Assembly: GCA_028714955.1 (NCBI GenBank)
Contig: JAQTLK010000004.1
Location: 709-64,708 of the forward strand
Length of the DNA: 64,000 bases
Reading direction: 5' to 3'
Source: Sulfuricella sp.
GTDB lineage: Bacteria; Pseudomonadota; Gammaproteobacteria; Burkholderiales; Sulfuricellaceae
Made by a program: the position numbers and the translations under genes. The stretch's first letter is position 1; every line of letters begins with the position of its first letter. This document shows, piece after piece, positions 34,633 through 62,446 of this stretch. The notes beneath the pieces are model-generated. The model saw only the letters and a program-made list of their open reading frames with translations. It was not told the origin of the DNA and made no database searches.

Positions 34633-34680
34633 TGCCCTAGGATGGTGCGGCAGCTTCTTTTTTTGCGCCACTATGGTGCG
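34633..34680. promoter_or_regulatory. Two NtrC-type boxes
   Basis: TGCCCTA-gga-TGGTGCG (34633-34649) and TGCGCCA-cta-TGGTGCG (34664-34680) against TGCACCA-N3-TGGTGCA; 31 bp apart. Confidence 0.8.
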
Positions 34681-35837
34681 TGCCGGCGCAATTCGATGGT
34701 ACGAAAAATGCCATTTTCTGCCTCAATCCTTGCAATTTCGGCTTTCAATCCAGTTATTCTTTCTGCTTGCCAGGTCGCTGGATCGGCAAGCAGAATCTCG
34801 GCGTCCACCTTGCCGCCCAGGTAGTGCAGGACGATCCTGTCTGCTGGCGGCAGGCTGGTGCCCAGCCGCTGGCTGAGCAGGCGCAACAGCTCTTCGCGCG
34901 GCGGCAGGTGTATGCTGCGTTTGACCGCCGAATCATCTTCCGGGTCGATGTGCACCATCACGTCGAGTGCGGCATGCGCCTTGAGCACGCGCGCGCGTGC
35001 GGTTTCTGCCACGTAATGCCCTTCCGACACGCTGATTTTCGGATCGACCAGCACGTGCGCGTCGACCAGCGCGCGGTCGCCCATGCGGCGCGTGCGCAGT
35101 TCGTGCAGGCCCTTTACGCCGGGTGTCGCCAGCAAGGTGCCACGGATGGCCGCGACTTCCTGTTCGTCCAGGCTGGTGTCGATCAGTTCCATGAGGGACT
35201 GATAGGCCTGCTTCCAGCCCATGCGGAAAATCATCGCCGCCACCAGAGCGGCCGCCAGCAGGTCGAGAGAAGTCACTCCGTAGAGATTGCCGGCAATGCC
35301 CGCTACCACGATCAGCGACGAGGCCGCATCGGAGCGAGCGTGCCAGGCGTTGGCTTCGAGCATGCGCGAGTGGAGTTTGCGCGCCACGTGCAGCATGTAG
35401 CGGAACAGCCCTTCCTTGGCGGCCAGCGTGAGGACGGCGATCCACAAGGTCATGACATGCACCCTCTGGATGACGGATGGATCCTGGAGGCGTTGTGCCG
35501 CGCCCCACAACAGGGCGGCGCCAGTCCCCATCAGGATCGCGCCCAGCACCAGGGTGGTGGCGGTTTCGATGCGCGCATGGCCATAAGGATGTTCCCTGTC
35601 CGCGTCCTTTGACCCGTGGCGGTTGGCGAACAGCACCAGGAAATCGCACAGCAGGTCGGACAGGGAATGCATGCCGTCGGCCACCAGCGCGGAGGATTTG
35701 CCGATAATGCCGATCACGATCTGCAACAGGGTCAGCGCGACATTCACGCCGACGCTGACCAGCGTGACTTTTTTCGCTGCATGGTAGCGCCGTCCCGCGC
35801 CCTCGTGCGAGCTGGTTTTTACGTCATGTTTTTCCAC
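34671..35837 (-). CDS. Cation diffusion facilitator (FieF-like)
   Basis: ALVADGMHSLSD, HPYGHARIE, NAWHARSDA, MVHIDPE; GGAG RBS before GTG 35837. Confidence 0.92.
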   Translation of the reverse strand: MEKHDVKTSSHEGAGRRYHAAKKVTLVSVGVNVALTLLQIVIGIIGKSSALVADGMHSLSDLLCDFLVLFANRHGSKDADREHPYGHARIETATTLVLGAILMGTGAALLWGAAQRLQDPSVIQRVHVMTLWIAVLTLAAKEGLFRYMLHVARKLHSRMLEANAWHARSDAASSLIVVAGIAGNLYGVTSLDLLAAALVAAMIFRMGWKQAYQSLMELIDTSLDEQEVAAIRGTLLATPGVKGLHELRTRRMGDRALVDAHVLVDPKISVSEGHYVAETARARVLKAHAALDVMVHIDPEDDSAVKRSIHLPPREELLRLLSQRLGTSLPPADRIVLHYLGGKVDAEILLADPATWQAERITGLKAEIARIEAENGIFRTIELRRHAP

Positions 35838-35863: not shown

Positions 35864-37048
35864 TTATTTTGCCTTGCCGGTTTCGAACGGGTAGCCGGCG
35901 GCTTTCCATTCCGGGTAGCCGCCACGGAACCAGTAGATATTCCTGTAGCCATTGCGCAGCGCCAGCACGGAAGCCTTGTAGCTCTTCCAGCACGGCGTGC
36001 CGTCGCAATAAAGCAGCATGGCGGTATTCTTGTCCTGCGGCAGCCTGGCCAGGTCGAACTTGTCTTCCGCGGCGTCAAACCCGACTTCCTTGGCGCTGAC
36101 TTCATGATAGGTAACCGGCAGCGCGCCCTTGATGTGTCCTTCCAGATATTCCGGCTCGGCGCGCGCATCGATCACGGTCACGCCTTTCGCCACCAGGTCG
36201 CGGGCCTGTTTGGCCTCGACCACGCGCGTGCCGGGCAGTTCTGTGGGCGTGGTATTGAGCATTGAAGAAATCGCGGCAAACTCCTCGCGTCGGGTGGGCG
36301 AGAAAACCATTTTCTTGCTGGCATCGGTTTCCGTTTCAGCGTATTTCAGCAGCGCGCTCCCGATCTTTTTTTCCTGCTCCGGGCTGATTTTCTTGCTGTT
36401 GACGGCAAAAGCCATCTTGGGCGCTTCGGCGGTAGGCTGGATAATCTTGCCCGGATGCGATTTCAACCACTTTCCGGCCAGCGCGGAATCCACGGCGACA
36501 ATATCCATGCTGTTGATTTCGAGCGCAAAAAGTTCAGCCTCCTGGCTACGGAAATAGCGGGCTTCCTGGAAATGCTTCCTGGTCTCGACCGATCTGGAGT
36601 TCAGTTCCCCGCGCACCAGGCCCGCCTGGACGGACTCGAAGGGCGGCAGGCCCAGTTTTGTTCCGACCGCCTCCTTGAGGCTTCGCCATTTCGCATCCTG
36701 TCCCGCGACGAAAACGGCACTCACCACGCCGCCTTCCTTGCATACCGGGTTGTAACCGGCTTTCAGCACGCTGGCGATGGTGTGGGAAGGTGCGATTATC
36801 ATGTCATACTCGCCGCGGCTGGCGCGTTTGGCCGCGGTAAAAGGGCTCGCTACCGGCGTGAAAGTGACGGGGGTGTTCAGTTGTGCGCTCAGAAATTTGG
36901 CCAGCGCCTGATATTTGCCCAATACGTCGGCATCCGCAAAGCGTTCGCTATCCGAAGGCGCCGCAGCCAGTTTCAGGGCTTCTGCAGACCAGGCCGGGCC
37001 CGCGCCCATCGCGGCCAGAAACAAAAACAATGGTATTGCACGTGACAT
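35864..37048 (-). CDS. Secreted PhnD-like solute-binding protein fused to a C-terminal rhodanese domain
   Basis: Signal peptide; type-2 binding-protein pattern (YQALAKFLSAQLNTPV, GEYDMII); rhodanese IDAR..EYLEGHIKGA, YCDGTPCWKS, WFRGGYPEW. Start at ATG 37048. Confidence 0.8.
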   Translation of the reverse strand: MSRAIPLFLFLAAMGAGPAWSAEALKLAAAPSDSERFADADVLGKYQALAKFLSAQLNTPVTFTPVASPFTAAKRASRGEYDMIIAPSHTIASVLKAGYNPVCKEGGVVSAVFVAGQDAKWRSLKEAVGTKLGLPPFESVQAGLVRGELNSRSVETRKHFQEARYFRSQEAELFALEINSMDIVAVDSALAGKWLKSHPGKIIQPTAEAPKMAFAVNSKKISPEQEKKIGSALLKYAETETDASKKMVFSPTRREEFAAISSMLNTTPTELPGTRVVEAKQARDLVAKGVTVIDARAEPEYLEGHIKGALPVTYHEVSAKEVGFDAAEDKFDLARLPQDKNTAMLLYCDGTPCWKSYKASVLALRNGYRNIYWFRGGYPEWKAAGYPFETGKAK

Positions 37049-37168
37049 TATAGACACCCCTTTCAAGACATTTGACCATGCATATAGCTTACCTTGAGAA
37101 AGCCTTAATGCGAAATTCTGCCCTGAGGTAGAATTCGCATCCAGAAAACCGACTCCGCAGAGAATTTC

Positions 37169-37984
37169 ATGACCGACCGCTACGCCGTGATAGGCAATCC
37201 CATCGCCCACAGCAAATCTCCCCTGATCCATGCCGAATTTGCCCGCCAGACAGGCCAGGACCTAAACTATACTTCATTGCTTGCCCCGCTTGACGCTTTT
37301 GCCCGCTGCGTGCGCGAATTTCAGGCAGCCGGGGGCAAGGGGCTCAACGTCACCGTGCCGTTCAAGCAGGAAGCGTGGAAGCTGGCGACTCGCCTGACGC
37401 CGCGCGCGGAACTCGCACAAGCGGTGAACACGCTGAAATTCGAAGGAGAAGCCATCCTGGGCGACAACACCGATGGCGCTGGACTGGTGCGCGACATTAG
37501 CGCCAACCTGGGTTTTGCCATCCAGGGCAAACGGATTCTGCTGATGGGGGCGGGGGGAGCGGCGCGGGGGGTGATCCTGCCCTTGCTGGAGCAGCGCCCG
37601 GCGCTGTTTGCCATTGCCAACCGCACACCGGCCAGGGCGCACGAACTGGCGCGGCTGTTCCTGCCCCACGGTGAACTGTGCAGCGGCGATTATGCCAGTC
37701 TTGCCGGCCAACATTTCGACCTGGTCATCAATGCCACTTCCAGCAGCCTGCACGACGAACTGCCGCCCCTTCCGGACAAGGTGTTCGCGTCCGGCAGCCT
37801 GGCTTACGACATGATGTACGGCAAGGGCCTGACGCCGTTTCTGCAATTCGCCCAGACCAACGGCGCGGCGCAATTGGCGGACGGCCTGGGCATGCTGGTC
37901 GAGCAGGCGGCGGAGTCTTTCTTCCTGTGGCGCGGCGTGCGGCCGGATACCCGGCCCGTCATGGCCATGCTGAAGTCCTTATGA
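37169..37984 (+). CDS. aroE: Shikimate dehydrogenase
   Basis: GNPIAHSKSP, NVTVPFK, GDNTDG, GAGGAA, DGLGMLVEQAA. Confidence 0.97.
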   Translation: MTDRYAVIGNPIAHSKSPLIHAEFARQTGQDLNYTSLLAPLDAFARCVREFQAAGGKGLNVTVPFKQEAWKLATRLTPRAELAQAVNTLKFEGEAILGDNTDGAGLVRDISANLGFAIQGKRILLMGAGGAARGVILPLLEQRPALFAIANRTPARAHELARLFLPHGELCSGDYASLAGQHFDLVINATSSSLHDELPPLPDKVFASGSLAYDMMYGKGLTPFLQFAQTNGAAQLADGLGMLVEQAAESFFLWRGVRPDTRPVMAMLKSL

Positions 37985-44067: not shown

Positions 44068-45186
44068 TCAGGAAGTCGTGCGCAGCACGGCAAGCTGCGC
44101 CAGCAGCGCATCGGTTACCGGTCCCAGCTTGCGCCGCATGAGAGAGCCGACAGCCGTGGTGCGCACCAGGATTGGCGCCACGCTGAATTCGCCCGTCTCG
44201 GCCAGCACCAGGAGGGCGTGCAGCGCGGCACGATACTGCGGCGCGGCGGCAAGCAGCGCCCCCATCTCGTCATCCGGCGCGGCGAGGCGCTGTGCCGCCA
44301 CGGCCAGCGCTTCTTCCAGCTCGAGCTCCCGGTTCGCGTCCTGGCGCAGTACGCCGAAATAAGCGCCGATGGCGCGAAACAGGGCTCGCGCCACATCCTG
44401 GTCCGCGGGGCGGCGCATCACGTCTTCGCAAGCCGCCAGGAAACGCTTGCCGGATGGCGCGAGCACGCGAGCCAGTTGCCGCGCATAGGGGTTGTCTGCT
44501 GCCAGCAATGGCTCCAGCACGGAGCTGCCATGTTGCGGCATTTCTCGCGCGTCATTTTCTCCCGGCAGCGCATCCGGCACAGCCTCGAGAAACCCCACGT
44601 AGTATGTGTTGTCGCCCTTGGCCCGGCTCCACAGGCGCTGCACGGTCCGCGGATCGAGCAAGCCCGGTTGCAGCACGATGCGCACCGTGTCGATCACGGC
44701 ATGCGGGCTGGTTTCGAACGGCAGGTTTTCAACCAGGTACTCGGCCAGTAACGGCCCCATGGTTCCCTGCGACACTGCTGCCCGTTCCAGCATGCGCCGC
44801 GCATTGTCCCCGCTCTGCACGCACCACCAGGCGCGCCGCGCCAGCTCATCGGTGAGTTTGGGCGAATAGGCCACTGATACCACGGCCTCCTCATCACCCA
44901 GCAGCAGCAGCTTGTCAATGTTGTCTCCCAGGTTCTGGCCCATGCGGGTCCAGCGCTGGATGAACAGAGGATAGCCGCCGGGGGATCCCAGCGCGTGGCC
45001 GGACAGCATTTCCCGCACCAGCCGCAGATACTGCTCCTTGCGCCCGGTGGGATGCAGCGCGATGCGCGCCTCGCTGCGCCCTGTCAGGGCATGCAGGGTC
45101 AGGCTGTTTTCATCGATGCGCACCGCCTGCAATTCATGAGTAAGCAGGACATTGAGGCGCAGTGCGTCTTCGCTGGAGAGTTCCAT
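44068..45186 (-). CDS. dsrS: DsrS-like protein (372 aa)
   Basis: MELSSEDALRLNVLL...VRIDE...LGSPGGYP..IQRWTRMGQ...LTDELARRAWW...LVENLPFET matches my recollection of DsrS of rDsr sulfur oxidizers; needs an HMM check. Confidence 0.72.
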   Translation of the reverse strand: MELSSEDALRLNVLLTHELQAVRIDENSLTLHALTGRSEARIALHPTGRKEQYLRLVREMLSGHALGSPGGYPLFIQRWTRMGQNLGDNIDKLLLLGDEEAVVSVAYSPKLTDELARRAWWCVQSGDNARRMLERAAVSQGTMGPLLAEYLVENLPFETSPHAVIDTVRIVLQPGLLDPRTVQRLWSRAKGDNTYYVGFLEAVPDALPGENDAREMPQHGSSVLEPLLAADNPYARQLARVLAPSGKRFLAACEDVMRRPADQDVARALFRAIGAYFGVLRQDANRELELEEALAVAAQRLAAPDDEMGALLAAAPQYRAALHALLVLAETGEFSVAPILVRTTAVGSLMRRKLGPVTDALLAQLAVLRTTS

Positions 45187-45203
45187 TGAGTCTCGTAAAA
45201 AAC

Positions 45204-46457
45204 CTAGTTCAGCTGTATCCGTTGTCCCCACGGCACGGGGGCCTTGCCCTTCACCAGCCAGAGCGTGGGGTAGCTGGGCTCGATGGCGGGGAAATCGCCT
45301 TCCGCGTCGGTGAAATAGAGCAGCAGATCGGGCTGGCGTCCCTGGCGCGCAATCCAGTCGAACACTGGCACGAAGCTGGTGCCGCCGCCGCCCTTGATGT
45401 CCCTGGGCAGACGCAATTCATCCCATGGCTCGAACTCCCACGGCGCACCGTTGGACAAGGCAGTGTCGCAAGCCAGCAGCGTCACCCTGGCACGTAATTG
45501 GCCCTTGAGCGCATCCACTTCCGAGAGGAACTGGGCAAGCTCCTTTTCCCCCACCGAGCCGCTGGTATCGAGCGCCACGACCAGGTCGACCTGGCCGCTG
45601 CGCAACGAGGGGAAAATGACATCGCCCTCGCGGCGCGAGGGTCGCATGTAGCTGTAATCGTCGCGTGCCACCTGGGAAAGGTATCGCGCCAGCAGCATGC
45701 GCCACGGCAGTTGCGGCTGCAGAAGGTGCTCGACCAGGCGCGCCAGCGCACCGCCCATCTTGCCCGCCGCCATCGCCTGCTGCGCGGCGGCGGCCATGCG
45801 CTGCTGCCATTGGCGGCCAAGTTCGTCGCGTTCCCTGGCATTCAGGGGAGGCGGCGGCGAAGCGCTGCCCTGCCCGTCCTGCCGCTCCTGCTGCAGCCCG
45901 CTCCCGCCGCCCTCGGCATCCTCCTTTTGCTGCCTGCCGCCGCCTCCGTCGCCATCCTGTTGCGGCTCCTGATCGTTCTCGCCGCCCTGGCCGCCTTCGG
46001 ACTCCTCGCTGTCATAGAGGTGCTGATCCATGGTCTGGTCGGAGTTGTTGTCGCCGATGCAGGGGTAGATTTCTTCCGCCGTCATGCCCTCGAAGGCGTC
46101 CAGCAACAGCACGCCAGGGGGCGCCTTGAGGCCATCGGCCACGAGCAGGGGATTGATGGCATGATCGCAGGCCACATCCCAGCGGTGCCTGACGCGGTGC
46201 TGGCGGCGCGCGAAATGCGACAGGGCGCAATGCAGTGCCTCATGAGCCAGCACGAATTGGGTTTCTTCCAGCGTCAACGCGGCGATATAGGCAGGGTTGT
46301 AGTAAAACTTGCGCGCATCGGTGGCCGAGGTGGGGCACCATTTCTCGTTCGCCGCCACCATCGGCAGGCGCAGCGCCAGCGCGCCGAGAAACGGCTTGTC
46401 CAGAATCAGCCGGGTGCGGGCCGCCGCGAGTTTGGTTTCGATGGAAGTATCAAACAT
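45204..46457 (-). CDS. Metallopeptidase-like (HExxH) plus vWA domain protein (DUF2201-like)
   Basis: LAHEALHCAL, WDVACDHAIN, acidic Gly-rich linker, MIDAS ALDTSGS, GGGGTSFVPVF, LYFTDAEG. Confidence 0.85.
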   Translation of the reverse strand: MFDTSIETKLAAARTRLILDKPFLGALALRLPMVAANEKWCPTSATDARKFYYNPAYIAALTLEETQFVLAHEALHCALSHFARRQHRVRHRWDVACDHAINPLLVADGLKAPPGVLLLDAFEGMTAEEIYPCIGDNNSDQTMDQHLYDSEESEGGQGGENDQEPQQDGDGGGGRQQKEDAEGGGSGLQQERQDGQGSASPPPPLNARERDELGRQWQQRMAAAAQQAMAAGKMGGALARLVEHLLQPQLPWRMLLARYLSQVARDDYSYMRPSRREGDVIFPSLRSGQVDLVVALDTSGSVGEKELAQFLSEVDALKGQLRARVTLLACDTALSNGAPWEFEPWDELRLPRDIKGGGGTSFVPVFDWIARQGRQPDLLLYFTDAEGDFPAIEPSYPTLWLVKGKAPVPWGQRIQLN

Positions 46458-50359: not shown

Positions 50360-51244
50360 TTATTTCAGCTTGTTCAACTGGCGCTGGATCAAGTCATCCG
50401 AGAGCGGCACGTACCCTGCCTCCGCCACTGCCGCCTGCCCTTCCCTCGACAGGCCTGTCTTGAGAAACGCCATTACTTCGGGGGAAACCGGTTTGCCATT
50501 GGGCCTGTCGATATAAAGAAAAAGAAAGTGCTGCAGGCGGTAACTCTTGTTGTAGAGGTTGGCCACCGTCAGCGGAACAAAATCGCCCGCCCCCTTTTTC
50601 AGGGGCACGATCTTCAGGCCGCTATTTGCCTGGTAACGGCCATATCCGAGCGCATCCTTGTTCTGCGCCACCCTGGCCAGCAACTGTTCGTGGCTCAGCT
50701 CTTCGATACCGGGCTTGAAGTCGTCGCGGCACAGCACGGTGTTGCTGAAAAAGTCGCGCACAGGCGACTTGTTGTCGTGCCCGAGCAGCACGATGGATTG
50801 CTTGTCCCACGGTGCCGGCAAACCAAGCTGGCCCCAGGTGGTGATGCGCTCATGCCAGCCGCAACCGTGGCTGGCGGAATAAAGGCTGTCGAGCTGCCTG
50901 TAATCGAGGCCCTTGAGCGGATTGCCGGGGTGCACGTACACCGCCACGGCCTCGATCCCCACCGCGATGGCAGTGGGATAATAGCCATGCACGCGGATAA
51001 AGGCTTCGCTTTCGTCGTTGGTCATTTCGCGGTTCATCGCCGCCAGGTCGGCCTTGCCGGAAATCAGGGCTTTGGGTGCGGTGCTGGTGCCGGGGCTGGA
51101 AATATTGATATCGCCGCCGGAGCGGGCCGCCCACTGTTTCAGGAAAGGCTCCAGCACGCTGGAGCCAATCGAGGTAACGCCAGCCAACGCCGCCGCCGGA
51201 GCGGCCGCCAGCAAGAAAACCAGGGTCAGCAACGTGCGTAACAT
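50360..51244 (-). CDS. PstS-family phosphate-binding protein (orphan)
   Basis: Signal peptide, GTSTAPKALISGKADLAAMNR, AVGIEAVAVYVHP.NP, ALGY, FLYIDR, AGYVPL. No pstCAB adjacent. Confidence 0.8.
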   Translation of the reverse strand: MLRTLLTLVFLLAAAPAAALAGVTSIGSSVLEPFLKQWAARSGGDINISSPGTSTAPKALISGKADLAAMNREMTNDESEAFIRVHGYYPTAIAVGIEAVAVYVHPGNPLKGLDYRQLDSLYSASHGCGWHERITTWGQLGLPAPWDKQSIVLLGHDNKSPVRDFFSNTVLCRDDFKPGIEELSHEQLLARVAQNKDALGYGRYQANSGLKIVPLKKGAGDFVPLTVANLYNKSYRLQHFLFLYIDRPNGKPVSPEVMAFLKTGLSREGQAAVAEAGYVPLSDDLIQRQLNKLK

Positions 51245-51457: not shown

Positions 51458-51859
51458 GTGAGCGAGGAAAACAATTTGAGCGGCACCAAGGTGATGGTGA
51501 TCGACGACAGCAACACCATCCGTCGCAGTGCTGAAATCTTCCTCTTGAAAGCCGGTTGCGAAGTGATCCTGGCGGAAGACGGCTTCGACGCCATGGCCAA
51601 GATCGCCGATTACCAGCCCGATATCATTTTCGTCGACATCATGATGCCCCGCCTCGACGGCTATCAGGCCACCATGCTGATCAAGAAGAACCCCCGTTTC
51701 AAGCACACGCCCGTCATCATGCTCTCCAGCAAGGATGGGCTGTTCGACCGCGCGCGCGGCAGAATGGTCGGCTCCGACGAATACCTCACCAAGCCCTTCA
51801 CCAAGGACAGCCTGCTGGAAGCCGTCCGTAAACACACAAGCACCCGTAGCGGCGCATAA
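51458..51859 (+). CDS. pilG: Twitching-motility response regulator
   Basis: KVMVIDDSNTIRRSAEIFL, DIMMPRLDGYQ, LSSKDGLFDRARGR. Confidence 0.95.
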   Translation: MSEENNLSGTKVMVIDDSNTIRRSAEIFLLKAGCEVILAEDGFDAMAKIADYQPDIIFVDIMMPRLDGYQATMLIKKNPRFKHTPVIMLSSKDGLFDRARGRMVGSDEYLTKPFTKDSLLEAVRKHTSTRSGA

Positions 51860-51880
51860 ATCAACGTACAGAGGTTACGC

Positions 51881-52246
51881 ATGGCAATCCATAAAATTCT
51901 GGTCGTCGATGATTCACCCACCGAACGCCATTTCCTCAACAGCCTGCTCACCAAGCAGGGTTATCAGATCGTGCTGGCGGAAAATGGCGAAGAGGCCATG
52001 CTCAAGGCCAGGCAGGAAAAGCCCGACCTCATCATCATGGACGTGGTGATGCCCGGCCTCAATGGCTTTCAGGCCACCCGCGCCATCTCCAAGGACGAGG
52101 AAACCCGGCACATTCCCGTCATCATGTGCACCACCAAGGGACAGGAGACGGACAAGGTATGGGCAATGCGCCAGGGCGCCAGGGACTATGTCACCAAACC
52201 GGTGAACCAGGCTGAGCTGCTCGGCAAAATCGCGGCACTCGGCTAA
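51881..52246 (+). CDS. pilH: Twitching-motility response regulator
   Basis: VDDSPTE, MDVVMPGLNGFQATR, TTKGQETDKVW. Confidence 0.95.
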   Translation: MAIHKILVVDDSPTERHFLNSLLTKQGYQIVLAENGEEAMLKARQEKPDLIIMDVVMPGLNGFQATRAISKDEETRHIPVIMCTTKGQETDKVWAMRQGARDYVTKPVNQAELLGKIAALG

Positions 52247-52260
52247 GGACGCCCAACCCC

Positions 52261-52785
52261 ATGGCACGACGCAATAAAATCGGGCTGCGCGAATTCCACC
52301 AGGAGGTGGTCGCCAAGCTGCAGGCCCTGAGTCAGGGCGGCGAAGCCGCGCCCTCATCGAAACTGGGGCTGCAGGCGGGCGATCAGTACTGGCTGGTGGA
52401 TCTGGCCGATATCGGCGAAGTGATCCAGCCGCCGGCGCTCACCCCCGTGCCGCTCTCGCAACCCTGGTTTGCCGGGGTCGCCAACGTGCGCGGCAACCTC
52501 TACAGCGTGGCGGATTTTTCCGCGTTCTGCGGCGGCGAAGCGGTAGCGGACAGCGCGGACAAACGCCTCGTTCTGGCCCACCCAAAATTCATGGTAAATG
52601 CTGGCCTGCTGGTCAGCCGCCTGCTTGGCCTGCGCCATGCAGACCAGTTGCAGGGGCGGGATATCCCGGCTGGCGCGGCGTCCTGGGTGAGCGCCGCGTA
52701 CACCGATAACGAAGGGCACCAATGGCAGGAATTGAACGTGCAGGCCCTGGTCAACGACCACGGCTTCCTGCAGGCGGGGCGGTAG
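52261..52785 (+). CDS. pilI: CheW-like adaptor
   Basis: VPLSQPWFAGVANVRGNLYSVAD. Confidence 0.9.
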   Translation: MARRNKIGLREFHQEVVAKLQALSQGGEAAPSSKLGLQAGDQYWLVDLADIGEVIQPPALTPVPLSQPWFAGVANVRGNLYSVADFSAFCGGEAVADSADKRLVLAHPKFMVNAGLLVSRLLGLRHADQLQGRDIPAGAASWVSAAYTDNEGHQWQELNVQALVNDHGFLQAGR

Positions 52786-52824
52786 CGCAGTACAGGCTCA
52801 AAAACAGCACCGAAAACACGAGGG

Positions 52825-54975
52825 ATGGAGATAAAAACAATGGCGTTCAAAGCGGAAAACCTGATGTTCTGGAAACGTGCCGGCAAAGGCAGGAGCGGTG
52901 CCGAAACCCCGCTGCATACCACCATGATTCTGCAGGGCATGCGCAAGCTTTCGGACAAGGAGCCGGGAACCGTCCCCCTCATCGGCCATCTGCCGATCGA
53001 GAGGCAATACCTGGTTACGGTTTCCACCCTGGTGATATTCCTCATCCTGGCGGTTGCCACCCTGGTCTACAACACCGTGCGCGTGGGCCGCAATGCCGAA
53101 TACGTGGCCACCTCCACCGAAATGCAGATGCTTTCGCAACGGATCGCCAAGAGCGCGCAGCAGGCAGCGCAGGGCAATACCGCCGCGTTCCGGCAACTGG
53201 ACGAAAGCGAAAAGCGCTTCGACAGGAGCCTCAAGAAACTGGTCAATGGCGGTGACGGCCTGCCGGCCTCGCCCGCTTCAGTGCAGCCGTTGCTGAAGGA
53301 GCTGGACAAGAAGTGGACCCCCTTGCAAAAAGCGATCGACCTGATTCTCAAGCAGGAAAAGGGGCTGGTGGATCTGAACCGCAGCGTGGCTGCGATCAAC
53401 ACCAACAACATCCAGTTGCTGGAACTGGCCGAGCAGGTGGCCGGTCTCCTGACCCAATCGGGCGCGCAACTGCGGGAAGTGACCATCGCCTCGCAACTGG
53501 TGATGCTGACCCAGCGCATGGCGAAAAACGCCAACACCCTGCTCTCGTCCGACGTCATCGACCCGGAAGTCGCCTTCCTGCTGGGCAAGGATGCCAACAC
53601 CTTCCACGACATCCTGGATGGCCTTCTCAACGGCAGCGAGGATCTGCGCCTGACCGCAGTCAAAGACCCTGACACCCGCGACAAGCTGAACGAACTCAAC
53701 GAGGCGTTCAAGGAATTTTCCGCGGAATCCAACAAGATTCTGCAAAGCATGCAGGATCTGGTGAACGCCAAGCAGGCCGGACGCTCGATCTTCGTGGGTT
53801 CAGACGGGCTGCTCGATGACGCCCGCAAGCTCGCCGCAGGCTATGAAAAGCTTGCCGGCGGCACAGGGCTGCTGGTGCTGTCCTTCGTTTACGGCCTTCT
53901 CGCCATTGGCGCCCTGGTCATGCTGGGCATGATTAACGTGAACGACGCCAAGAAGCGCGCGCTGGCAAGCGAGCGCGAGAACAAATCCAACCAGGAAGCC
54001 ATTCTGCGGCTGCTGAACGAAATGGGCGACCTGGCGGAAGGCGACCTGACGGTGCGTGCCAAGGTGACAGAAGACATCACCGGCGCCATCGCCGACTCCA
54101 TCAACTATACCATCGACGAATTGCGCGGCCTGGTAACGGAGATCAACAAGACCAGCGAGCAGGTGACCCAGGCTTCCCGCCAGGCGCAGAACATTTCCAA
54201 CGAACTGCTGGAGGCCGCGCAGAAGCAGTCGCAGGAGATCGAGGACACCTCCGCCCAGGTGTTGCAGATGGCGCAATCGATTAACGAGGTATCCGCCAAC
54301 GCCGCCGAGTCCGCCCGCGTGGCACAGCAATCTCTCGATGCGGCCGAGAAGGGCACCACCGCCGTGCACAACTCCATCACCGGCATGAACGAGATTCGCG
54401 AGCAGATCCAGGACACCTCGAAACGCATCAAGCGCCTGGGTGAAAGCTCGCAGGAAATTTCGGAAATCGTCGAACTGATTTCCGACATTACCGAACAGAC
54501 CAACATTCTCGCGCTGAACGCCGCCATCCAGGCTGCATCGGCCGGCGAGGCGGGGCGCGGCTTCACGGTGGTGGCGGAAGAAGTGCAACGTCTGGCGGAG
54601 CGCTCCGGCGAGGCGACGAAACAGATTTCCGCGATTGTGAAGGCCATTCAGACCGATACCCAGGACGCCGTGTCGGCGATGGAAAAGAGCACCCAGGGCG
54701 TGGTGGAGGGCGCCAAACTGTCCGATGCCGCCGGCCAGGCGCTGAACGAAATCGACCAGGTGTCGCGCAACCTCGCGGAACTGATCGAAACCATTTCCCG
54801 CGCCACCCAGAACCAGGCGCAGGCGGCCCGCGTCGTGGCCTCCAACATGCAGGAAATCCAGAACATCACCATCCAGACCACGGAAGGCACCAAAAAAACC
54901 GCCATTTCCGTGGGCGAGCTGGCGACACTGGCAACCGACCTGCGCGGATCGGTGGCTGGCTTCAAACTTTCCTGA
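52825..54975 (+). CDS. pilJ: Methyl-accepting chemotaxis protein
   Basis: Two TM helices, [57 protein letters not shown]. Confidence 0.95.
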
Positions 54976-54999
54976 GCAAGCCAAGGGGCACCTTGATAA

Positions 55000-57900
55000 A
55001 TGAGCATTGAATTCGATACCGGCCCGCTCACCTGGGTCAAGGGTGAAATTGACCAGGCCCTGCAGCAGGCTGACGAAAAACTGGCCCAATTCGCTGCCGA
55101 CGCCTCCGACAGCACGCCGTTGCGCCAGTGCCAGACGCATTTGCACCAGGTCAGCGGCGCCATCCAGATGGTGGGGCTCGAAGGCGTGGCGCGCCTCGGC
55201 GAAGCAATCGAGCAACTGGTCGGGGCGATGGAAAAGCGCGAGGTCGCCATTTCCGGGGCCAATCTCGACTTGATCAAGCGGGGCATGGCCGCACTCTCGC
55301 AGTACCTGGAAGACCTGCTTGGCGGCCAGCCGGACCAGCCGCTGCGGCTGTTTCCTGTTTATCACGCCTTGCTCGCGGCGCGGGGCGTGGAAAAGGTCAG
55401 CGAAAGCGAGCTGTTTTTCCCCGACCTGACCCTCCGCGCGCCGAAAAACCCGGATGTCCACCCCCGCGCCGCCGAGGCGCTGCCGAGCTTCCTCAAGGCC
55501 GAGCGCGCGCGTTACGAGCGCGGCCTGCTCGGCTTCCTGCGTAACGCGGAAGACAGCGCGGCGCTGGGCAAAATGCGCGATGCGCTGGCCGCCATCGAAC
55601 AAACCCAGACCGTTCCGGCGCTTCGCACTTTCTGGTGGAGCGCGACCGGCCTGGCTGAAAGCCTGCTGCACAAGGGCCTGGACGCCAGCCTCAACCTCAA
55701 GCAGTTATGCGGGCGCATAGACCAGCAAATCCGCCGTCTTGCCGAAGGCTCGCCCAAGGTGGCGGAACGCCTGCTGCGCGACGTGCTGTATTTTGTCGCG
55801 CGCAGCAAGCCGGTAAGCGGCAGGGTGGCAGAGATCCAGGGCTTGTTCGAACTAGAGGCATACATGCCCCATAGCGCGGAACAGGAAGCGGCAAAAACCG
55901 AGCAGGAGCGGATGCTGCCGCTGCTGCGCGAATTGCGCGACCTGCTTGCGTCCGCCAAGGAGGCCTGGCTCAAGTTCACCTCGGGCAGCAACGACAGCCT
56001 GGCGAATTTTCATGCTCAGGCCAGGCGCCTGGCGGACAGGGCCTCGGCTTTGGAAAATGCTCCGCTTAACCAGTTGCTGCACCAGATCGGCTATGGCGCC
56101 GCCGCCCTCGCCGCCCATCCCGCCGACATGAACGAAATGGTGGCGATGGAGATGGCTACCGCATTGCTGCTGGCGGAAAACACACTGGAACACTACCTGG
56201 GCGCAACGGATGAGTTCACCCGGCAGGCCGAAGTGCAATCCTCGAGACTGCAGGCGGCGCTGCAGGGCAGGCTGGACGAAATCGAAGTTTCGGACATTCC
56301 GCTGCTGGACGAAATGTCGCGCAAGGCACAGGAAAAACTCCTGCTGGCGCAGGTCGGCCAGGAAATCCAGTCCAACCTGCAGCACATCGAGCAGGTGCTG
56401 GACGGCTTCTTCCGCGATACCGCCAAACGCGACGAATTGCCCGGCCTGAAGCCTTTCCTCAAGCAAATCCAGGGCGCGCTGAAAATTCTCGAGCTGGAAC
56501 CCGCCATCAAACTGCTGGATGAGTGCGAGCGCCTCATCGACGGCTTTTCTCAGCCTGGCCATGAACCCCTGCAGGCGCAGATGGAACAGGTGGCAGAAGG
56601 ATTGAGCAGCCTCGGCTTCTATGTCGAAGCCATCCAGCGTGGCCGCGCGGACGCGGTGCAGATCGTTGACGGCGCCCTTGCCCGCCTCAATCCCGCCGCG
56701 CAAGCGCCGCTTGTGGCCACGCCGGTGGAAATCCCCGAAGAACAAGCCGCCACGAGCGTCGAAGCCAGTCTGGAAGACCAGAAACAGCGCGCCCAGGCCC
56801 TGCTGGAGCAGTGGCAGGAGAACCCTGACGATGCCCAGGCCAAGGCGGACCTGAAAAAACAGTTTTCCGTCTTGCAGCAGGACGCCGAACTGGTGGCGGA
56901 TGGCACGCTCAAATCCCAGGCCACGGAAGCGATGCGCCTTCTGGAACAGGCGGAAATGCCGACGGCCGAGCTGGCTACCGCAACCGCAGCCCTGAGCGCG
57001 CCGAAAATGGCGGCCAGCGTCCCATCGGCGGAGACGACGCGTCTCGCCGGAGAAGCCGACGAAACCATCGATGCCGAAATGCTCGAAATCTTCCTGGAAG
57101 AGGCCGACGAAGTGCTCGCCACGGTGACCGGGAATCTCGACCTATGCCATGCCCGGCCCAACGACAGGGAAGCGCTTGCCACGCTGCGCCGCAGTTTTCA
57201 CACGCTCAAGGGCAGCGGCCGCATGGTGGGCCTGTGGGAATTGGGCGAGGTTGCCTGGGCGATCGAGCAGGTGATGAACAAGTGGCTGCAGGAAGAAAAG
57301 AACGCCACCCCGGAACTCCTCGCCCTGCTTGGCCAGGCGCAGCAGCGCTTTCTTGGCTGGGTAGCCGCGCTGAAAGCCAGCGGCACGGTCAGGATCATGG
57401 CCGACGACCTGGTGGCGGAAGCCGAGCGCCTGAAAACCGGGATGAACGCACCTGGTGTTGCAGCGCCCCCCGAAGCACCCGCCGCGGCCGCTGAAGAAAC
57501 GCCTGCGGCGGAACCGGGCATGGAAATCAGCGCACCGCCCGGCGAGGAGCCCGCTGAAGAAATCATAAGCATCGTCGGGCTTCCCGCCGAGGAAACGCCA
57601 TCCGTTGCCGAAACGTGCGAAGAAAGTGCCGAAGCGGAGCCGCTTCCCGCAGCGCTCATGGAGCAAAGCGCGCCGGCAAGCGAAGCCGGGGTCGAAGCGG
57701 AGCCGCCTGCGGGTGTCGAAGCGCAGCAGCCTCCCGTGGAGGAAGAGCGTGAAATCTCGGTCGGCTCCGTCACCCTGCCCTATGCCCTCTACAGCATATT
57801 CATCAATGAAGCCGGACAGCACCTGGCCACGCTGCGGCAGCACCTGGATGCCCTGACCCAGAACCCCGAAGTGGCCGTGCAGCATGATTTCATGCGAGCG

Positions 57901-60586: not shown

Positions 60587-62308
60587 TTATTTCTTCTGCA
60601 ATATTTCGAAGCTGGTTCGCAGCCAGTTATCGCCCTTTTCGATCACCCGGCCCAAGGCGATCGAATAGTTGCGGCTGCGGGCGCTTAATTCGAAATGGCG
60701 GCCGGGAGCATATTCCACGCTGTCCATGATCAGGCTGACGCCACGTTTGTCCTCTCCGGCCGGCGGCAGGTAAAGCGCGCTTACCGGCAACACGATATCC
60801 ACCGCGTCGATACCGTCGACGGTATAACCACTATGACGAGGTTTCGACGCCTTGAGCGCGACGGTGACCGGCGCCTTGGCAAGAATCTCGATGCCGACAT
60901 TGCGTTGGCCAGATTCCAGCAAGGCCAGCCGCCGAATCACGCCGACCACCCAGTTATGGCTGCGCTCAGGCTTCAGCCCAACCAGTTTCCCGAGCCGCAC
61001 CCAATCGTTATCGACGGAATCGACGGTTGCGCCGAAGCCGCCCGAACTCTCGTTTTCCATCAGCCAGCGCTCATGATGCGCCACCTGCTGCGCCTGCTCG
61101 ACGGGCTTCTCCTGCCCGGCCCGTTGCAGCTTGTCCTGGGTGCGCTGCGTCACGAAGCCATAGAGACGCATGTCAAGCATCTCTTCATAGCTGATTCTGA
61201 CCTTCTGCTCCGCTTCTTTCTGCCTGGGCGAAAGCGCTTCGTTGTCCTGTTTCACCAGAGCGCAGATTTCGAGAAAATCCTTTGCCACATCGATCATTTT
61301 TACCCTGGCTACGCGCTCCTGCGAGCGCCGCACCCGTCCCTCGCCCGTGGACGACCATTGGCGCGTGATGCGCTCGATGAGTTCCAGGCATGACGGCAGG
61401 CGGCAGTCCTCGCCCAGGCCAAGCCGGGCAGGCGTTTCGCCCTGCTGTAGCGCCACCTTGGCTTGCGCCACCCGTTCCATCAAGGCATCGGTTCCCCAGC
61501 AGCGCGACATGCCGTCCGCCGTGAAAAGCTTGCGGGCGCGCCACGGGCCCTTGTCTTCGCCCAGATTGACGCAGAACACATGCCGCTGCGGGTCATAATC
61601 CCGCTCCAGCTTCAAGGTGTCGGCCCAGGTATCGAGCCACAGGTCCGCCATCTCGATCTGTTTCGGAAACAGACTGTTGGTATTAAGCACATCCAGGCTC
61701 AGGAGCTGAAGATATTCCTCGGCACAGGTCGTGCGGCGCGGGCACAGGGGATAGAGAAGCAGGGGCTTGCGCTCGAATTCTTCATATTCCGACAGACGGT
61801 AGAGATTGTGAACATGTTTCCACAGCTTGGCGCCTATCGTTTCATAGCGAAAATAACGCCACTTGGCCTGCTGCGCAAAATGGCGCAGGGCGCGCGCGGT
61901 GATCAGGGGAATATCGTGGCGGATATCGCTGCCGTTCGGATTGCCCACGTAAGCCATGACGAACATGTGGTAGCCGCGCGCCATCTGCCAGTGAAAGGAA
62001 AATACTTCGTTCCACAGGCGGCTCTCGATCTGGCGCGACATGCGCGGATTGCGGAGATACTGCTGGGTCAGCGCGTGCTGCAGTTCCTGCGCGCCTTCAT
62101 CGAGATGCATCAGCACTTGCAGGCGTTCTTTGCCGAGAGGCGCAGCTTTCTCGTTGAATTCATTGAGCGCAGCCACGATTTTTTCATGGGCTGAAAAAGT
62201 ATCGCCCATGGGCAATTCGAGCAGCCACGTCGTGGCCGCCTTGAGGCTGCCCAGGGGGTCGGACGGAGGCGATGGTTTTTTTCGGCCAAAAGGCAGAAAG
62301 TCGAGCAT
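60587..62308 (-). CDS. Helical protein with C-terminal PilZ-like domain (573 aa)
   Basis: Start MLDFLPFG at 62308; RSQER (RxxxR) and NESSGG (NxSxxG); beta-rich C-terminus. Confidence 0.7.
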   Translation of the reverse strand: MLDFLPFGRKKPSPPSDPLGSLKAATTWLLELPMGDTFSAHEKIVAALNEFNEKAAPLGKERLQVLMHLDEGAQELQHALTQQYLRNPRMSRQIESRLWNEVFSFHWQMARGYHMFVMAYVGNPNGSDIRHDIPLITARALRHFAQQAKWRYFRYETIGAKLWKHVHNLYRLSEYEEFERKPLLLYPLCPRRTTCAEEYLQLLSLDVLNTNSLFPKQIEMADLWLDTWADTLKLERDYDPQRHVFCVNLGEDKGPWRARKLFTADGMSRCWGTDALMERVAQAKVALQQGETPARLGLGEDCRLPSCLELIERITRQWSSTGEGRVRRSQERVARVKMIDVAKDFLEICALVKQDNEALSPRQKEAEQKVRISYEEMLDMRLYGFVTQRTQDKLQRAGQEKPVEQAQQVAHHERWLMENESSGGFGATVDSVDNDWVRLGKLVGLKPERSHNWVVGVIRRLALLESGQRNVGIEILAKAPVTVALKASKPRHSGYTVDGIDAVDIVLPVSALYLPPAGEDKRGVSLIMDSVEYAPGRHFELSARSRNYSIALGRVIEKGDNWLRTSFEILQKK

Positions 62309-62446
62309 TCCAGGTTTACCAAAGCAGTGAGAGATCAGCATCTTACCAGCAAACTGCGTGCCAGTTTCAATCCCCCCTTCCTTTATCGCCCAAGCAAAGG
62401 AAGGTATACTTGCCGCGAGACCCGTTTGACGTATTTTGAGGACGCC

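Follow-up and report, generated by a model that had tools for sequence, protein, structure and literature searches.

A PhnD-like binding domain fused to a two-cysteine rhodanese in Sulfuricella: an undescribed periplasmic protein with a possible role in sensing

A gene on the minus strand of the window (the whole stretch of 64,000 nucleotides analyzed here) joins a PhnD-like solute-binding protein (SBP) domain to a rhodanese, which raises the question of whether its product traffics sulfur, senses a cue or serves some other periplasmic function. The sequence-only reading had described it as an exported oxyanion-binding protein of a probable sulfur oxidizer and had put forward a possible role in sulfur trafficking or sensing. 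The open frame extends from 35864 to 37231 on the minus strand, and the start was taken as the ATG at 37048, which gives the following gene and leader.

35864..37048, minus strand: SBP-rhodanese fusion gene, complete, 394 amino acids plus stop, with the stop codon at 35864-35866 (open reading frame list, translation, Pfam)
37057..37064, minus strand: putative ribosome-binding site GAAAGGGG, 8 nt 5' of the ATG at 37048 (direct reading of the sequence)
36986..37048, minus strand: predicted Sec signal peptide, residues 1 to 21, with cleavage after AWS (sequence)

The N terminus, MSRAIPLFLFLAAMGAGPAWS followed by AEA after the cleavage site, is a Sec-type signal, in agreement with the export that had been proposed; a twin-arginine motif and a lipobox were sought in the same region and neither was present. 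A hydrophobic N terminus was found in all homologs, and the product is predicted to be a soluble, Sec-exported periplasmic protein. In the AF2 model, residues 1 to 20 have pLDDT values below 50, and the whole fusion (pLDDT 91.9; pTM 0.84) is modeled as a confident single body.

The fusion is a conserved gene, and a chance open reading frame is ruled out. At least 228 full-length homologs were found; both domains were covered in the best 80 of 555 species-level genome matches, and the SBP-rhodanese architecture was present in approximately 27 among 150 listed representatives at 50% identity. The hosts comprise Thiobacillus, Sulfuricellaceae, Dechloromonas/Azonexus, Usitatibacteraceae, unclassified Burkholderiales and other Betaproteobacteria. 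A protein 100% identical to the fusion occurs in public assemblies (P0001), and the best named match, at 85% identity, is SKTS_01410 of Sulfurimicrobium lacus. Database names of the homologs are generic only, the NCBI label for the fold being "PhnD/SsuA/transferrin." A literature search on rhodaneses with PhnD, CXXCW or chemoreceptors returned no relevant paper; according to this search no member has been studied, and both the fusion and its rhodanese subtype are undescribed, as had been suspected for the former. Both halves belong to well-known superfamilies, and it is their combination and the rhodanese subtype that lack a studied member. Among public sequencing runs the gene was found in DNA metagenomes only, and the RNA runs did not contain it.

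The N-terminal half and the junction that follows it were delimited as below.

36257..36979, minus strand: periplasmic binding domain of the PhnD/PtxB/AioX fold with a putatively remodeled pocket, residues ~24 to 264 (Pfam, PDB profiles, Foldseek)
36230..36256, minus strand: junction TTPTELPGT, with invariant T267, P268 and G273 (alignments)

Residues 42 to 258 match PF12974 (Phosphonate-bd) with an E value of 2.7e-17 and 63.4 bits against a cutoff of 27, and the clamp belongs to the PhnD-like, two-lobe class II periplasmic binding protein fold. Searches against PDB profiles matched Te_PtxB (E value, 2.5e-12), Ps_PtxB and ArrX, and Foldseek gave target-normalized TM scores of 0.64 to 0.77 against ArrX, PtxB, AioX, PhnD and HtxB. 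In PhnD, PtxB and HtxB the oxyanion site is formed by an STS-H motif and Tyr ligands (PMC5700983, PMC5908839). The first Ser of STS, S139, was kept in 111 of the 113 aligned members of the fusion family, but the Thr position is Leu in 107 of the 113, and Ala or Gln stands in place of the second Ser; at the His position the family is divided between His, Gln and Pro (H73/Q26/P7), the window protein having Q169, and the Tyr positions are Glu or Val at the hinge and Leu or Pro in lobe 1. Judged from these alignments, the canonical STS-His/Tyr oxyanion site appears to be mostly lost, S139 alone remaining, so that the fold named in the sequence-only reading was borne out and its oxyanion-binding character was not. 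A phosphonate, phosphite or arsenic oxyanion was accordingly rejected as the canonical ligand. Column frequencies show a different conserved set, consisting of P87-A88-H89, S139, R146-G-E-L-N150, R167, D182 and W194, and they contain no metal-site motif conserved across the family.

The C-terminal half is the better conserved of the two and carries the two-cysteine loop.

35879..36229, minus strand: rhodanese domain of the periplasmic "C.G..CWKSYK" subtype, residues ~274 to 390 (Pfam, NCBIfam below threshold, model, Foldseek)
36053..36103, minus strand: subtype insertion E316-V-S-A-K-E-V-G-F-D...D-K-F-D332 (aligned to gaps in 6mxv)
35975..36007, minus strand: active-site loop C348-D-G-T-P-C353-W-K-S-Y-K358 (translation, HMMER alignment, invariance)

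Residues 279 to 384 match PF00581 (Rhodanese) with an E value of 4.4e-16 and 59.6 bits against a cutoff of 22.2, and the domain is a member of this homology family; modeled alone it has a pLDDT of 94.3. Against the PDB it gave 80 matches at an E value of 1e-3 or below, of which those listed are rhodanese-fold domains, and the best Foldseek matches are single-domain rhodaneses of the sulfurtransferase type (TM score, 0.6 to 0.66). The Lys-rich loop, in the context LLYC348DGTPC353WKSYK, places C348 after the central beta-strand in alignment with the canonical catalytic Cys. Compared with the sulfurtransferase loop type CX4[R/T/S], the fusion has C-D-G-T-P-C-W-K, that is, 8 residues rather than 6, with a second Cys and with Lys as the last basic residue; the HMMER alignment shows the two additional residues as an insertion relative to CGG--GFRS of 6mxv. 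C348 and C353 were invariant in the 113 aligned family members, and the CDGTPC loop stands as originally read. Canonical rhodaneses are without the upstream insertion, in which E316, S318, K320, F324 and D329 are invariant. The domain carries the full motif set of its subtype: the TP..L.G cap, D.R, the Y.EKS.K...FD insert, C.G..CWKSYK and WFRGG.P.W. The TP..L.G motif at the junction recurs in free-standing rhodaneses of the same subtype, where it caps the N terminus.

Using NCBIfam, the best match was to the rhodanese part of TsoB (61.2 bits against a cutoff of 805, covering profile positions 59 to 161 of 572), and below it were other rhodaneses of (seleno)proteins; TIGR03865 was matched with 50.3 bits against a cutoff of 128.05. 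Identity as a TsoB-type rhodanese/DsbD selenoprotein was rejected, as the match is partial and below cutoff and neither a DsbD module nor selenocysteine is present. A link to a PQQ dehydrogenase, prompted by TIGR03865, was also rejected, since the score lies far below cutoff and no PQQ dehydrogenase was found in any surveyed context of the fusion. More distant relatives carry thioredoxin-like, MauE or DsbD-like modules as fusion partners, including a rhodanese with Thioredoxin_7 (P0209) and a rhodanese with MauE (P0191). In all but one of the sampled representatives the two Cys were either retained or missing together, and Cys-less proteins were confined to one or two basal clades of a neighbor-joining tree (rough, constructed without support values). 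Because paired loss can be traced to so few clades it is weak as evidence of covariation, and it was down-weighted as evidence of a disulfide once the tree had been obtained.

To identify partners of the fusion, its gene neighborhood was examined in the window and across 81 loci, from which approximately 1,200 neighboring open reading frames were clustered.

34671..35837, minus strand: cation-efflux gene of the CDF family, downstream of the fusion gene (Pfam Cation_efflux and ZT_dimer, TIGR01297)
37169..37984, plus strand: aroE (shikimate dehydrogenase), upstream and divergent (domain search of neighbors)

The CDF gene probably starts at the GTG at 35837, 26 nt past the fusion stop, and a spacing of 21 to 26 bp is likewise found in six Sulfuricellaceae-type loci. 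No terminator-like site lies between the two genes, such sites being located at 34566-34542, after the CDF gene, and from this arrangement the two are probably cotranscribed. The divergent aroE is conserved among Sulfuricellaceae loci, and the promoter should lie in the 120-bp region between aroE and the fusion gene. Across the 81 loci no conserved partner gene was found: neighbors are clade-specific and housekeeping (aroE/mtgA/CDF/glnA, topA/gyrB/dnaN/dnaA, or moaA/typA), and the CDF neighbor is limited to one clade, accounting for approximately 7 of the 81 loci. No second copy of the rhodanese was found near the fusion gene. In Thiobacillus, a small conserved open reading frame lies upstream of the fusion gene; it has no match in Pfam, NCBIfam or the PDB. 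As had been noted for the window, no permease or ATPase adjoins the fusion gene, its neighbors being the CDF gene and aroE, and ABC-ATPase-like matches were found within ~10 kb in 6 of 79 loci and within 2 kb in one (tblastn with a single query, of limited sensitivity). Neither the window nor 80 related loci had a chemoreceptor gene adjoining the fusion gene (tblastn with seven partner chemoreceptors), and no histidine kinase, regulator or other sensor gene was adjacent to it in the surveyed contexts.

The free-standing rhodaneses of the subtype have a different setting. The closest of these, exemplified by Noviherbaspirillum sp. UKPF54 (CP040128, locus L083), are 52 to 55% identical to the rhodanese domain of the fusion, and in all seven close members a TarH/4HB-HAMP-MCPsignal gene lies 45 to 136 bp downstream on the same strand. 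One Cys-less free-standing member has the same downstream chemoreceptor gene, and the other neighbors differ between these loci. Among the free-standing members looked up, the chemoreceptor gene is next downstream in 8 of 10, and in metagenome loci this was the case for 72 of 74 informative instances. Two more distant free-standing members (P0162 and P0166) have no such neighbor. Two further proteins (P0182 and P0200) are single polypeptides in which the subtype rhodanese precedes a complete chemoreceptor. In another (P0143) its fusion partner is a PstS that scores above the PstS equivalog cutoff; the context of this gene, in which no chemoreceptor was found, is uninformative, as the contig ends there and a second rhodanese lies upstream. 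On the strength of gene order and domain fusion, the free-standing and receptor-fused rhodaneses of this subtype are predicted to be partners of chemoreceptors. Cys-less relatives retain both WKSYK and the chemoreceptor partner, suggesting that the core role of the subtype is independent of the catalytic Cys.

Because the free-standing and receptor-fused versions of the subtype partner chemoreceptors, we tentatively favor, with less than even confidence, a role for the fusion as a periplasmic sensing or coreceptor protein. This reading is backed by the conservation of the fusion, by the lack of conserved ABC genes nearby, as with the orphan proteins AioX and ArrX, by the pocket that appears remodeled, by the confident single body of the model, and by P0143, which joins the subtype rhodanese to PstS, itself a partner of the chemoreceptor CtpL. 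The fusion would work without a dedicated transporter, its clamp acting as a Venus flytrap in which H89, S139 and R167, to judge from the alignments, may replace the canonical ligands at cleft positions; such a replacement would imply a ligand other than phosphonate, phosphite or arsenic oxyanions. The cue, perhaps a small anion or a reactive sulfur or redox species, would be detected when the clamp captures its ligand, when C348/C353 undergo a thiol, disulfide or persulfide change, or in both ways, and contact between proteins would relay it to a membrane receptor whose gene lies elsewhere. Several points stand against a sensor: no receptor or sensor gene adjoins the fusion gene, the free-standing P0162 and P0166 are without a chemoreceptor neighbor, and the invariant Cys pair, together with the thioredoxin-like, MauE and DsbD-like fusions of relatives, points to real thiol chemistry or catalysis. 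Moreover, the chemoreceptor link belongs to free-standing relatives only (~50 to 55% identical), whose function may not necessarily transfer to the fusion.

Several other explanations were weighed. Rhodaneses are usually read as sulfurtransferases, and in a trafficking role the clamp would take thiosulfate, polysulfide or a related anion, C348 would carry a persulfide that C353 may resolve, and the sulfur would be handed over to a periplasmic acceptor. The catalytic position of C348 and the invariance of both Cys are compatible with this, the nearest solved folds are YgaP, GlpE and PRF rather than CDC25, many hosts (Thiobacillus, Sulfuricella, Sulfurimicrobium) are sulfur oxidizers, and a gene for a canonical cytoplasmic CRSGYRS rhodanese follows the fusion gene in Dechloromonas-type loci. 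However, linkage of the fusion to a sulfur gene, be it sox, dsr, sqr, tsd or another, was seen in no clade, the contexts being housekeeping, and the sulfur-oxidation genes tested for were absent from the window, leaving the proposed tie to sulfur metabolism and the sulfur-oxidizer setting without support from gene context. The family also extends to lineages not labeled as sulfur oxidizers (Dechloromonas/Azonexus, Usitatibacteraceae and unclassified Burkholderiales), a distribution wider than the earlier proposal would suggest. The longer loop ending in Lys, the clamp without an oxyanion site and the Cys-less relatives that keep WKSYK and a chemoreceptor partner also count against trafficking, which we consider possible but unlikely. 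Of the two roles offered by the sequence-only reading, sensing fits best, given the chemoreceptor genes coupled to the closest free-standing relatives, including Cys-less ones that, without the Cys, cannot be sulfurtransferases.

It is rather improbable that the protein is instead a periplasmic thiol-disulfide redox enzyme, in which a C348/C353 dithiol would act on a clamp-held oxyanion (arsenate, selenite or tellurite) or on a partner protein and be recharged by a DsbD/CcdA-type system. Longer rhodanese-type loops are used by the arsenate reductases (Acr2) and by CDC25 phosphatases, which favors such an enzyme, as do the ranking of TsoB and other (seleno)protein rhodaneses in NCBIfam, the Thioredoxin_7 and MauE fusions and the Cys pair being kept or lost together. 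However, the NCBIfam scores are far below cutoff (61 versus 805 and 50 versus 128 bits), the surveyed loci have neither a DsbD/CcdA gene nor a thioredoxin gene linked to the fusion, the paired loss is weak as covariation, the arsenic and phosphite pocket residues are absent, and CDC25 comes low among the fold matches. An ordinary SBP feeding an importer, ABC-type or other, whose genes lie elsewhere in the genome, with the rhodanese as an accessory tail, would be consistent with the transport SBPs PhnD, PtxB and HtxB of the PF12974 fold and with the orphan SBP genes known to serve distant transporters (PMC8050422). It is very improbable, as 73 of 79 loci showed no linked ABC ATPase in the single-query tblastn and such linkage is nowhere conserved, the STS-H/Tyr site appears lost, and a mere tail would not be expected to be the more conserved half. 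Finally, the close and terminator-free spacing to the CDF gene in the window and six Sulfuricellaceae-type loci, a divergent CorA-like gene beside the fusion gene in four Usitatibacteraceae-type loci and the "transferrin" element of the NCBI label could suggest a metal-handling partner of the CDF pump, in which either the CX4C loop or a clamp site of the His/Asp/Glu kind would bind Zn, Fe or Mn. To this we attach very little probability, since the CDF link is restricted to one clade and no family-wide metal-site motif was found; moreover, no CDF pump is known to depend on a periplasmic partner.

Taking the sensing or coreceptor reading further, a broader and more doubtful proposal is that the "C.G..CWKSYK" rhodaneses constitute an unrecognized class of extracytoplasmic coreceptor or ligand-sensing modules for chemoreceptors, and that the PhnD- and PstS-rhodanese fusions are adaptors through which a membrane receptor would respond to solute capture by the clamp or to a sulfane-sulfur or redox change of the two Cys. 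If true, this would be the first rhodanese-based periplasmic signal input; a subtype acting as a sensory partner of chemoreceptors would provide a new periplasmic input module and a handle on sulfur, redox or anion sensing. Should the fusion instead be an enzyme of sulfur transfer or redox chemistry, it would represent an undescribed periplasmic step in bacteria relevant to sulfur and nitrogen cycling. It is a core gene of sulfur-oxidizing and denitrifying Betaproteobacteria that are common in the environment, such as Thiobacillus, Sulfuricella and Dechloromonas. Either way, the rhodanese and chemoreceptor genes form a testable two-gene module with defined residues to mutate.

Among known systems, AioX and ArrX are orphan signaling SBPs with the same fold as the clamp (PMC5908839, PMC8050422). 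Together with ArxX, they form a PF12974 group through which arsenic oxyanions are signaled to a histidine kinase. The fusion has this fold in common with AioX, ArxX and ArrX (ArrX 6x8w, E value of 1.9e-15 and target-normalized TM score of 0.74; AioX 6esv/6esk), as well as a periplasmic location and the lack of a transporter of its own, its signaling role being proposed only. The AioX pocket consists of Y88, C106, Y131, S161, S163, H192 and D210 (PMC5908839), of which only the first Ser is conserved in the fusion family; AioX is without a rhodanese domain, and the fusion is without an adjacent two-component system. PhnD, PtxB and HtxB belong to the Pfam family of the clamp and have its two-lobe fold, but the fusion appears to have lost STS-H and the hinge Tyr, has no neighbors of the phnCE or ptxAC type and possesses an additional C-terminal domain. 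PstS, as the partner of the chemoreceptor CtpL, provides a precedent for an oxyanion SBP as a chemoreceptor ligand (PMC8050422), a likeness that is an analogy only for both the fusion and P0143.

On the rhodanese side, GlpE, PspE, YgaP and the periplasmic Sud have the fold and a Cys at the catalytic position in common with the fusion, at an identity of 25% or less; the fusion differs in its two additional loop residues, the second Cys, the Trp and an extra insert of 12 to 17 residues. The TIGR03865 CXXCW protein, associated with PQQ-dependent catabolism, and TsoB are, like the fusion, periplasmic and rhodanese-like with a loop of the Cys...CW type, at scores far below their cutoffs, whereas the fusion is without the PQQ dehydrogenase context, the DsbD module and the selenocysteine. 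The chemoreceptor-linked free-standing rhodaneses share with it the TP..L.G cap, the EKSAK..FD insert, the two-Cys loop and WFRGG.PEW; they are single-domain proteins with a receptor gene adjacent, in contrast to the fusion, which has an SBP domain instead and no receptor gene nearby.

For the gene encoding the fusion of a PhnD-like clamp and a rhodanese, the ATG at 37048 was preferred as the start because a GAAAGGGG ribosome-binding site sits 8 nt upstream. Translation from this codon gives 394 residues and a stop, beginning with a Sec-type signal peptide, MSRAIPLFLFLAAMGAGPAWS followed by AEA, in which neither a twin-arginine motif nor a lipobox was read.

35864-37231, minus strand: ORF as listed, preferred start at 37048
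Residues 42-258: Phosphonate-bd, PF12974 (Pfam, E 2.7e-17, well over the gathering score)
Residues 279-384: Rhodanese, PF00581 (Pfam, E 4.4e-16, well over the gathering score)
36007-35975, minus strand: rhodanese loop LLYC348-D-G-T-P-C353-W-K-S-Y-K, from the sequence

These features bear out the earlier description of an exported PhnD-like fold joined to a CDGTPC rhodanese. An AlphaFold2 model built from 113 homologues had a pLDDT of 91.9 and a pTM of 0.84, with disorder confined to the signal peptide; the high pTM suggests that clamp and rhodanese hold a defined relative position.

Searching about 5.8 billion proteins with the fusion returned 228 matches at E <= 1e-5. All 120 of the matches listed carried both Pfam domains within a length of 370 to 415 aa, and one matched the window protein at 100% identity. 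The best named match, Sulfurimicrobium lacus SKTS_01410 (85% identical), is annotated "hypothetical protein," and other source annotations are generic ("PhnD/SsuA/transferrin family substrate-binding protein" or "rhodanese-related sulfurtransferase"). When a single genome was scanned for each species, 555 relatives were identified; both domains were covered in all of the best 80, which came from Thiobacillus, Thiobacillaceae, or "Hydrogenophilales" (n = 32), Sulfuricellaceae-type taxa (n = 7), Dechloromonas/Azonexus (n = 3), Usitatibacteraceae (n = 2), and unclassified beta/Burkholderiales bins. The domain search suggested by the sequence-only reading thus identified a conserved two-domain family. 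Family alignments revealed greater conservation in the rhodanese half (invariant E316, S318, K320, F324, D329, C348, G350, C353, W354, S356, Y357, K358, W373, R375, G376, G377, P379, and W381) than in the clamp, where P87, P101, N150, F160, W194, and P210 were invariant and A88, H89, S139, L140, R146, G147, E148, R167, and D182 nearly so.

Foldseek with the model as query and a profile search of PDB sequences concordantly placed the clamp closest to ArrX, PtxB, AioX, PhnD1, HtxB, and XAC2383 (E down to 1.9e-15; target-normalized TM, 0.64 to 0.77; identity, 11 to 17%). The PhnD/PtxB-family ligand site comprises an "STS-H" motif and a hinge Tyr (PMC5700983), and the ligand residues Tyr88, Tyr131, Ser161, Ser163, and His192 (AioX numbering) are common to PhnD (PMC5908839). 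Published ligand residues were mapped via HMMER alignments onto the column frequencies of 113 fusion-family sequences. The first Ser of STS-H is retained (S139, 111/113), the Thr position is Leu in 107/113, Ala or Gln stands in place of the second Ser, and the His position varies (H73/Q26/P7), being Q169 in the window protein; the two ligand Tyr positions are Glu/Val and Leu/Pro. Family-specific conserved residues occupy cleft-type positions, namely, H89 (aligned with PhnD Ser68), S139, and R167, which lies two residues ahead of the STS-H His position, and the clamp carries a strict L-A-R-G-E-L-N helix. From these residues, we infer that a pocket persists, yet differs from a phosphonate, phosphite, or arsenic site. 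Of the "oxyanion-binding fold" proposed earlier, the PhnD-like fold stands, but the STS-H/Tyr site is lost save S139.

In HMMER alignments, C348 occupied the position of the catalytic Cys in solved rhodaneses, and the loop carried a two-residue insertion (CDGTPCWKS versus CGG--GFRS of 6mxv) and is therefore eight residues, not six; the second Cys is at +5, and Lys replaces the usual Arg. An extra insert of 12 to 17 residues (E316...D332) had no counterpart in the solved rhodaneses aligned. The best fold matches of a rhodanese-only model (pLDDT 94.3) were single-domain sulfurtransferase-type rhodaneses (3tp9, 6mxv, YgaP, Alr3790, and GlpE; TM, 0.6 to 0.66; identity, <= 25%), with CDC25 ranked below them. 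NCBIfam gave sub-threshold matches to the rhodanese portion of the selenoprotein TsoB (rhodanese/DsbD) (61 versus a cutoff of 805 bits) and to TIGR03865 PQQ_CXXCW (50 versus 128 bits), scores that make the domain a relative of both families, outside their membership.

A CDF cation-efflux gene (Pfam Cation_efflux and ZT_dimer; TIGR01297) lies 26 nt downstream of the fusion in the window, with no terminator-like site between them and such sites present past the CDF gene; aroE and mtgA are upstream and divergent, and glnA is farther downstream. When neighboring ORFs were called in 80 related loci and clustered, conservation was restricted to within clades (T, fusion):

Sulfuricellaceae type: mtgA< aroE< T> CDF> glnA>
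Thiobacillus type: LysM> dprA> smg> topA> small ORF> T>, then gyrB< dnaN< dnaA<
Dechloromonas type: moaA> typA< T>, then a canonical cytoplasmic rhodanese
Other clades: heterogeneous surroundings

No sox, dsr, PQQ dehydrogenase, two-component system, or chemoreceptor gene adjoined the fusion in the window or the 80 related loci. ABC-ATPase-like sequence occurred within about 10 kb in just 6 of 79 loci, in agreement with the earlier remark that no transporter is adjacent. The further window genes checked (cbb3 oxidase, copper ATPase, ResB, CstA, and a pilJ/chpA cluster) were housekeeping, so the description of the host as a probable sulfur oxidizer draws on taxonomy and has no basis in the genes of the window.

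Directly downstream of the fusion in Dechloromonas-type loci L009, L012, and L046, a same-strand gene encodes a 164-aa cytoplasmic single-domain rhodanese with a CRSGYRS loop; the gap is 37 to 94 bp in two loci, and the called ORFs overlap in the third. Thiobacillus-type loci (L010 to L066) have a strongly conserved small ORF of 125 to 136 aa between topA and the fusion on the same strand (e.g., L019:9490-9885 and L043:9532-9924), typically about 20 to 150 bp ahead of the fusion gene (start as called here). It lacks a signal peptide and had no match in Pfam, NCBIfam, or PDB; its strand/helix pattern suggests a possible degenerate receiver domain. Elsewhere in the window were the following:

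51458-60531, plus strand: type IV pilus chemosensory cluster, 16 kb from the fusion and unrelated to it, opening with three small genes, two of them receiver-like, then PilJ
52825-54975, plus strand: PilJ (PilJ and MCPsignal domains), followed on this strand by a ChpA-like kinase of 1,843 aa (four Hpt matches, HATPase, CheW, and receiver)
50360-51244, minus strand: orphan PBP_like_2 (PstS-type) binding protein, 294 aa, just upstream of the pil cluster, with no transporter genes noticed alongside in the window
60587-63124, minus strand: ORF of 845 aa, unmatched in Pfam at E <= 1e-5; three ORFs on the plus strand overlap it, and it may be spurious
44068-45231, minus strand: ORF of 387 aa, no Pfam match at E <= 1e-5

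Using phmmer with residues 262 to 394 against 1.84 billion representatives, 5,266 proteins were found at E <= 1e-3 and 580 at E <= 1e-10; about 27 of the best 150 50%-identity representatives had the PhnD-rhodanese architecture. Many matches of the same subtype (C.G..CWKSYK loop, EKSAK..FD insert, and TP..L.G cap) were free-standing, about 150 aa with a signal peptide and rhodanese only. Genomic places were looked up for free-standing members matched by a profile of that group. In all seven close members (Sulfuricella, Noviherbaspirillum sp. UKPF54, Sulfuriferula, Usitatibacter, and three further contigs), a TarH/4HB_MCP-HAMP-MCPsignal chemoreceptor gene lay 45 to 136 bp downstream on the same strand, this gene apart from which the neighbors differed among all seven. 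A Cys-less member had the same arrangement and two more distant members did not, giving the rhodanese-then-chemoreceptor order in 8 of 10 proteins. A metagenome scan added 80 loci, which as best matches form one fairly close group; a same-strand MCP (chemoreceptor) homologue started 7 to 217 bp past the rhodanese gene in 72 of the 74 loci that extended far enough downstream (653 bp in one).

L081-L090, L094, and L095-L174: loci with the two-gene module (rhodanese of about 150 aa, then a TarH/4HB chemoreceptor about 30 to 220 bp on)
L083:8001-8456: rhodanese of an example module
L083:8592-10280: MCP of the same module

The periplasmic domain of the partner receptors is conserved (RFRMAGVLL.QMP..GSKNH and EDEWP), and Cys was absent from the first 230 residues in all seven read, an absence that makes a simple exchange of thiols with the receptor less likely. 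In P0182 and P0200, each about 740 aa long, the N-terminal rhodanese is followed by a TM hairpin, a periplasmic helical region, HAMP, and an MCP signaling domain; they are Rosetta-stone fusions of the module. The low GC content of both sequences points to a host probably outside the Betaproteobacteria. Gene adjacency and these single-chain fusions are strong context evidence that free-standing members work with a chemoreceptor in the periplasm. No description of the module was found in the searchable literature.

Among about 105 representatives bearing the W[KR]SYK motif, about 14 have lost both cysteines, and one retains the first only. The Cys-less loop is S-[DH]-G-x-x-G-W-K-S-Y-K, with the remaining subtype motifs all kept (P0149, P0171, P0180, P0181, P0185, P0202, P0203, P0210, P0220, P0224, P0234, and P0259). 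As these proteins fall in one or two basal clades of a rough NJ tree, the paired loss would represent few events and is weak evidence for a C348-C353 disulfide. A Cys-less free-standing member (P0149 cluster, L094) still precedes a chemoreceptor gene in the same arrangement, so the conserved subtype core is independent of a catalytic cysteine. Remoter matches carried several rhodaneses in one chain, joined to MauE or Thioredoxin_7. The subtype rhodanese is also fused to a PstS meeting the PstS equivalog cutoff (P0143):

L091:1037-2437: PstS-rhodanese fusion (P0271/P0143)
L091:277-870: second rhodanese gene beside it

No pstCAB or chemoreceptor gene was found in the 8 kb downstream, and a contig end cuts the upstream side.

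The best single explanation of the PhnD-rhodanese fusion, offered tentatively, is that it would act as a periplasmic sensing or co-receptor protein. This is weakened by the lack of a receptor gene linked to the fusion, by the invariance of both cysteines within its family, and by the thiol-redox modules of distant relatives. A sulfurtransferase, as first proposed, would suit the fold matches and is rather unlikely, neither gene context nor pocket supporting sulfur trafficking; sensing, the other half of that proposal, is the better-supported direction. A dithiol redox enzyme acting through C348 and C353 is more doubtful. Less likely than either are a solute-binding protein (SBP) serving a distant transporter, which would fit the clamp fold and is improbable, and a metal role together with the CDF pump, whose adjacency is confined to one clade type and which is the most improbable of these.

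A sensing or co-receptor role is favored because the fusion rhodanese is 52 to 55% identical to MCP-linked proteins, with all subtype motifs present in the alignments, because the PstS-rhodanese fusion exists, and because of two known systems. Both domains are of known kinds, and no characterized member of the architecture or the rhodanese subtype was found in PDB, Pfam, NCBIfam (family level), or the searchable literature. Orphan signaling SBPs, as in AioX to AioS, belong to the same fold as the clamp, and docking of an SBP on a chemoreceptor is established for PstS and CtpL (PMC8050422).
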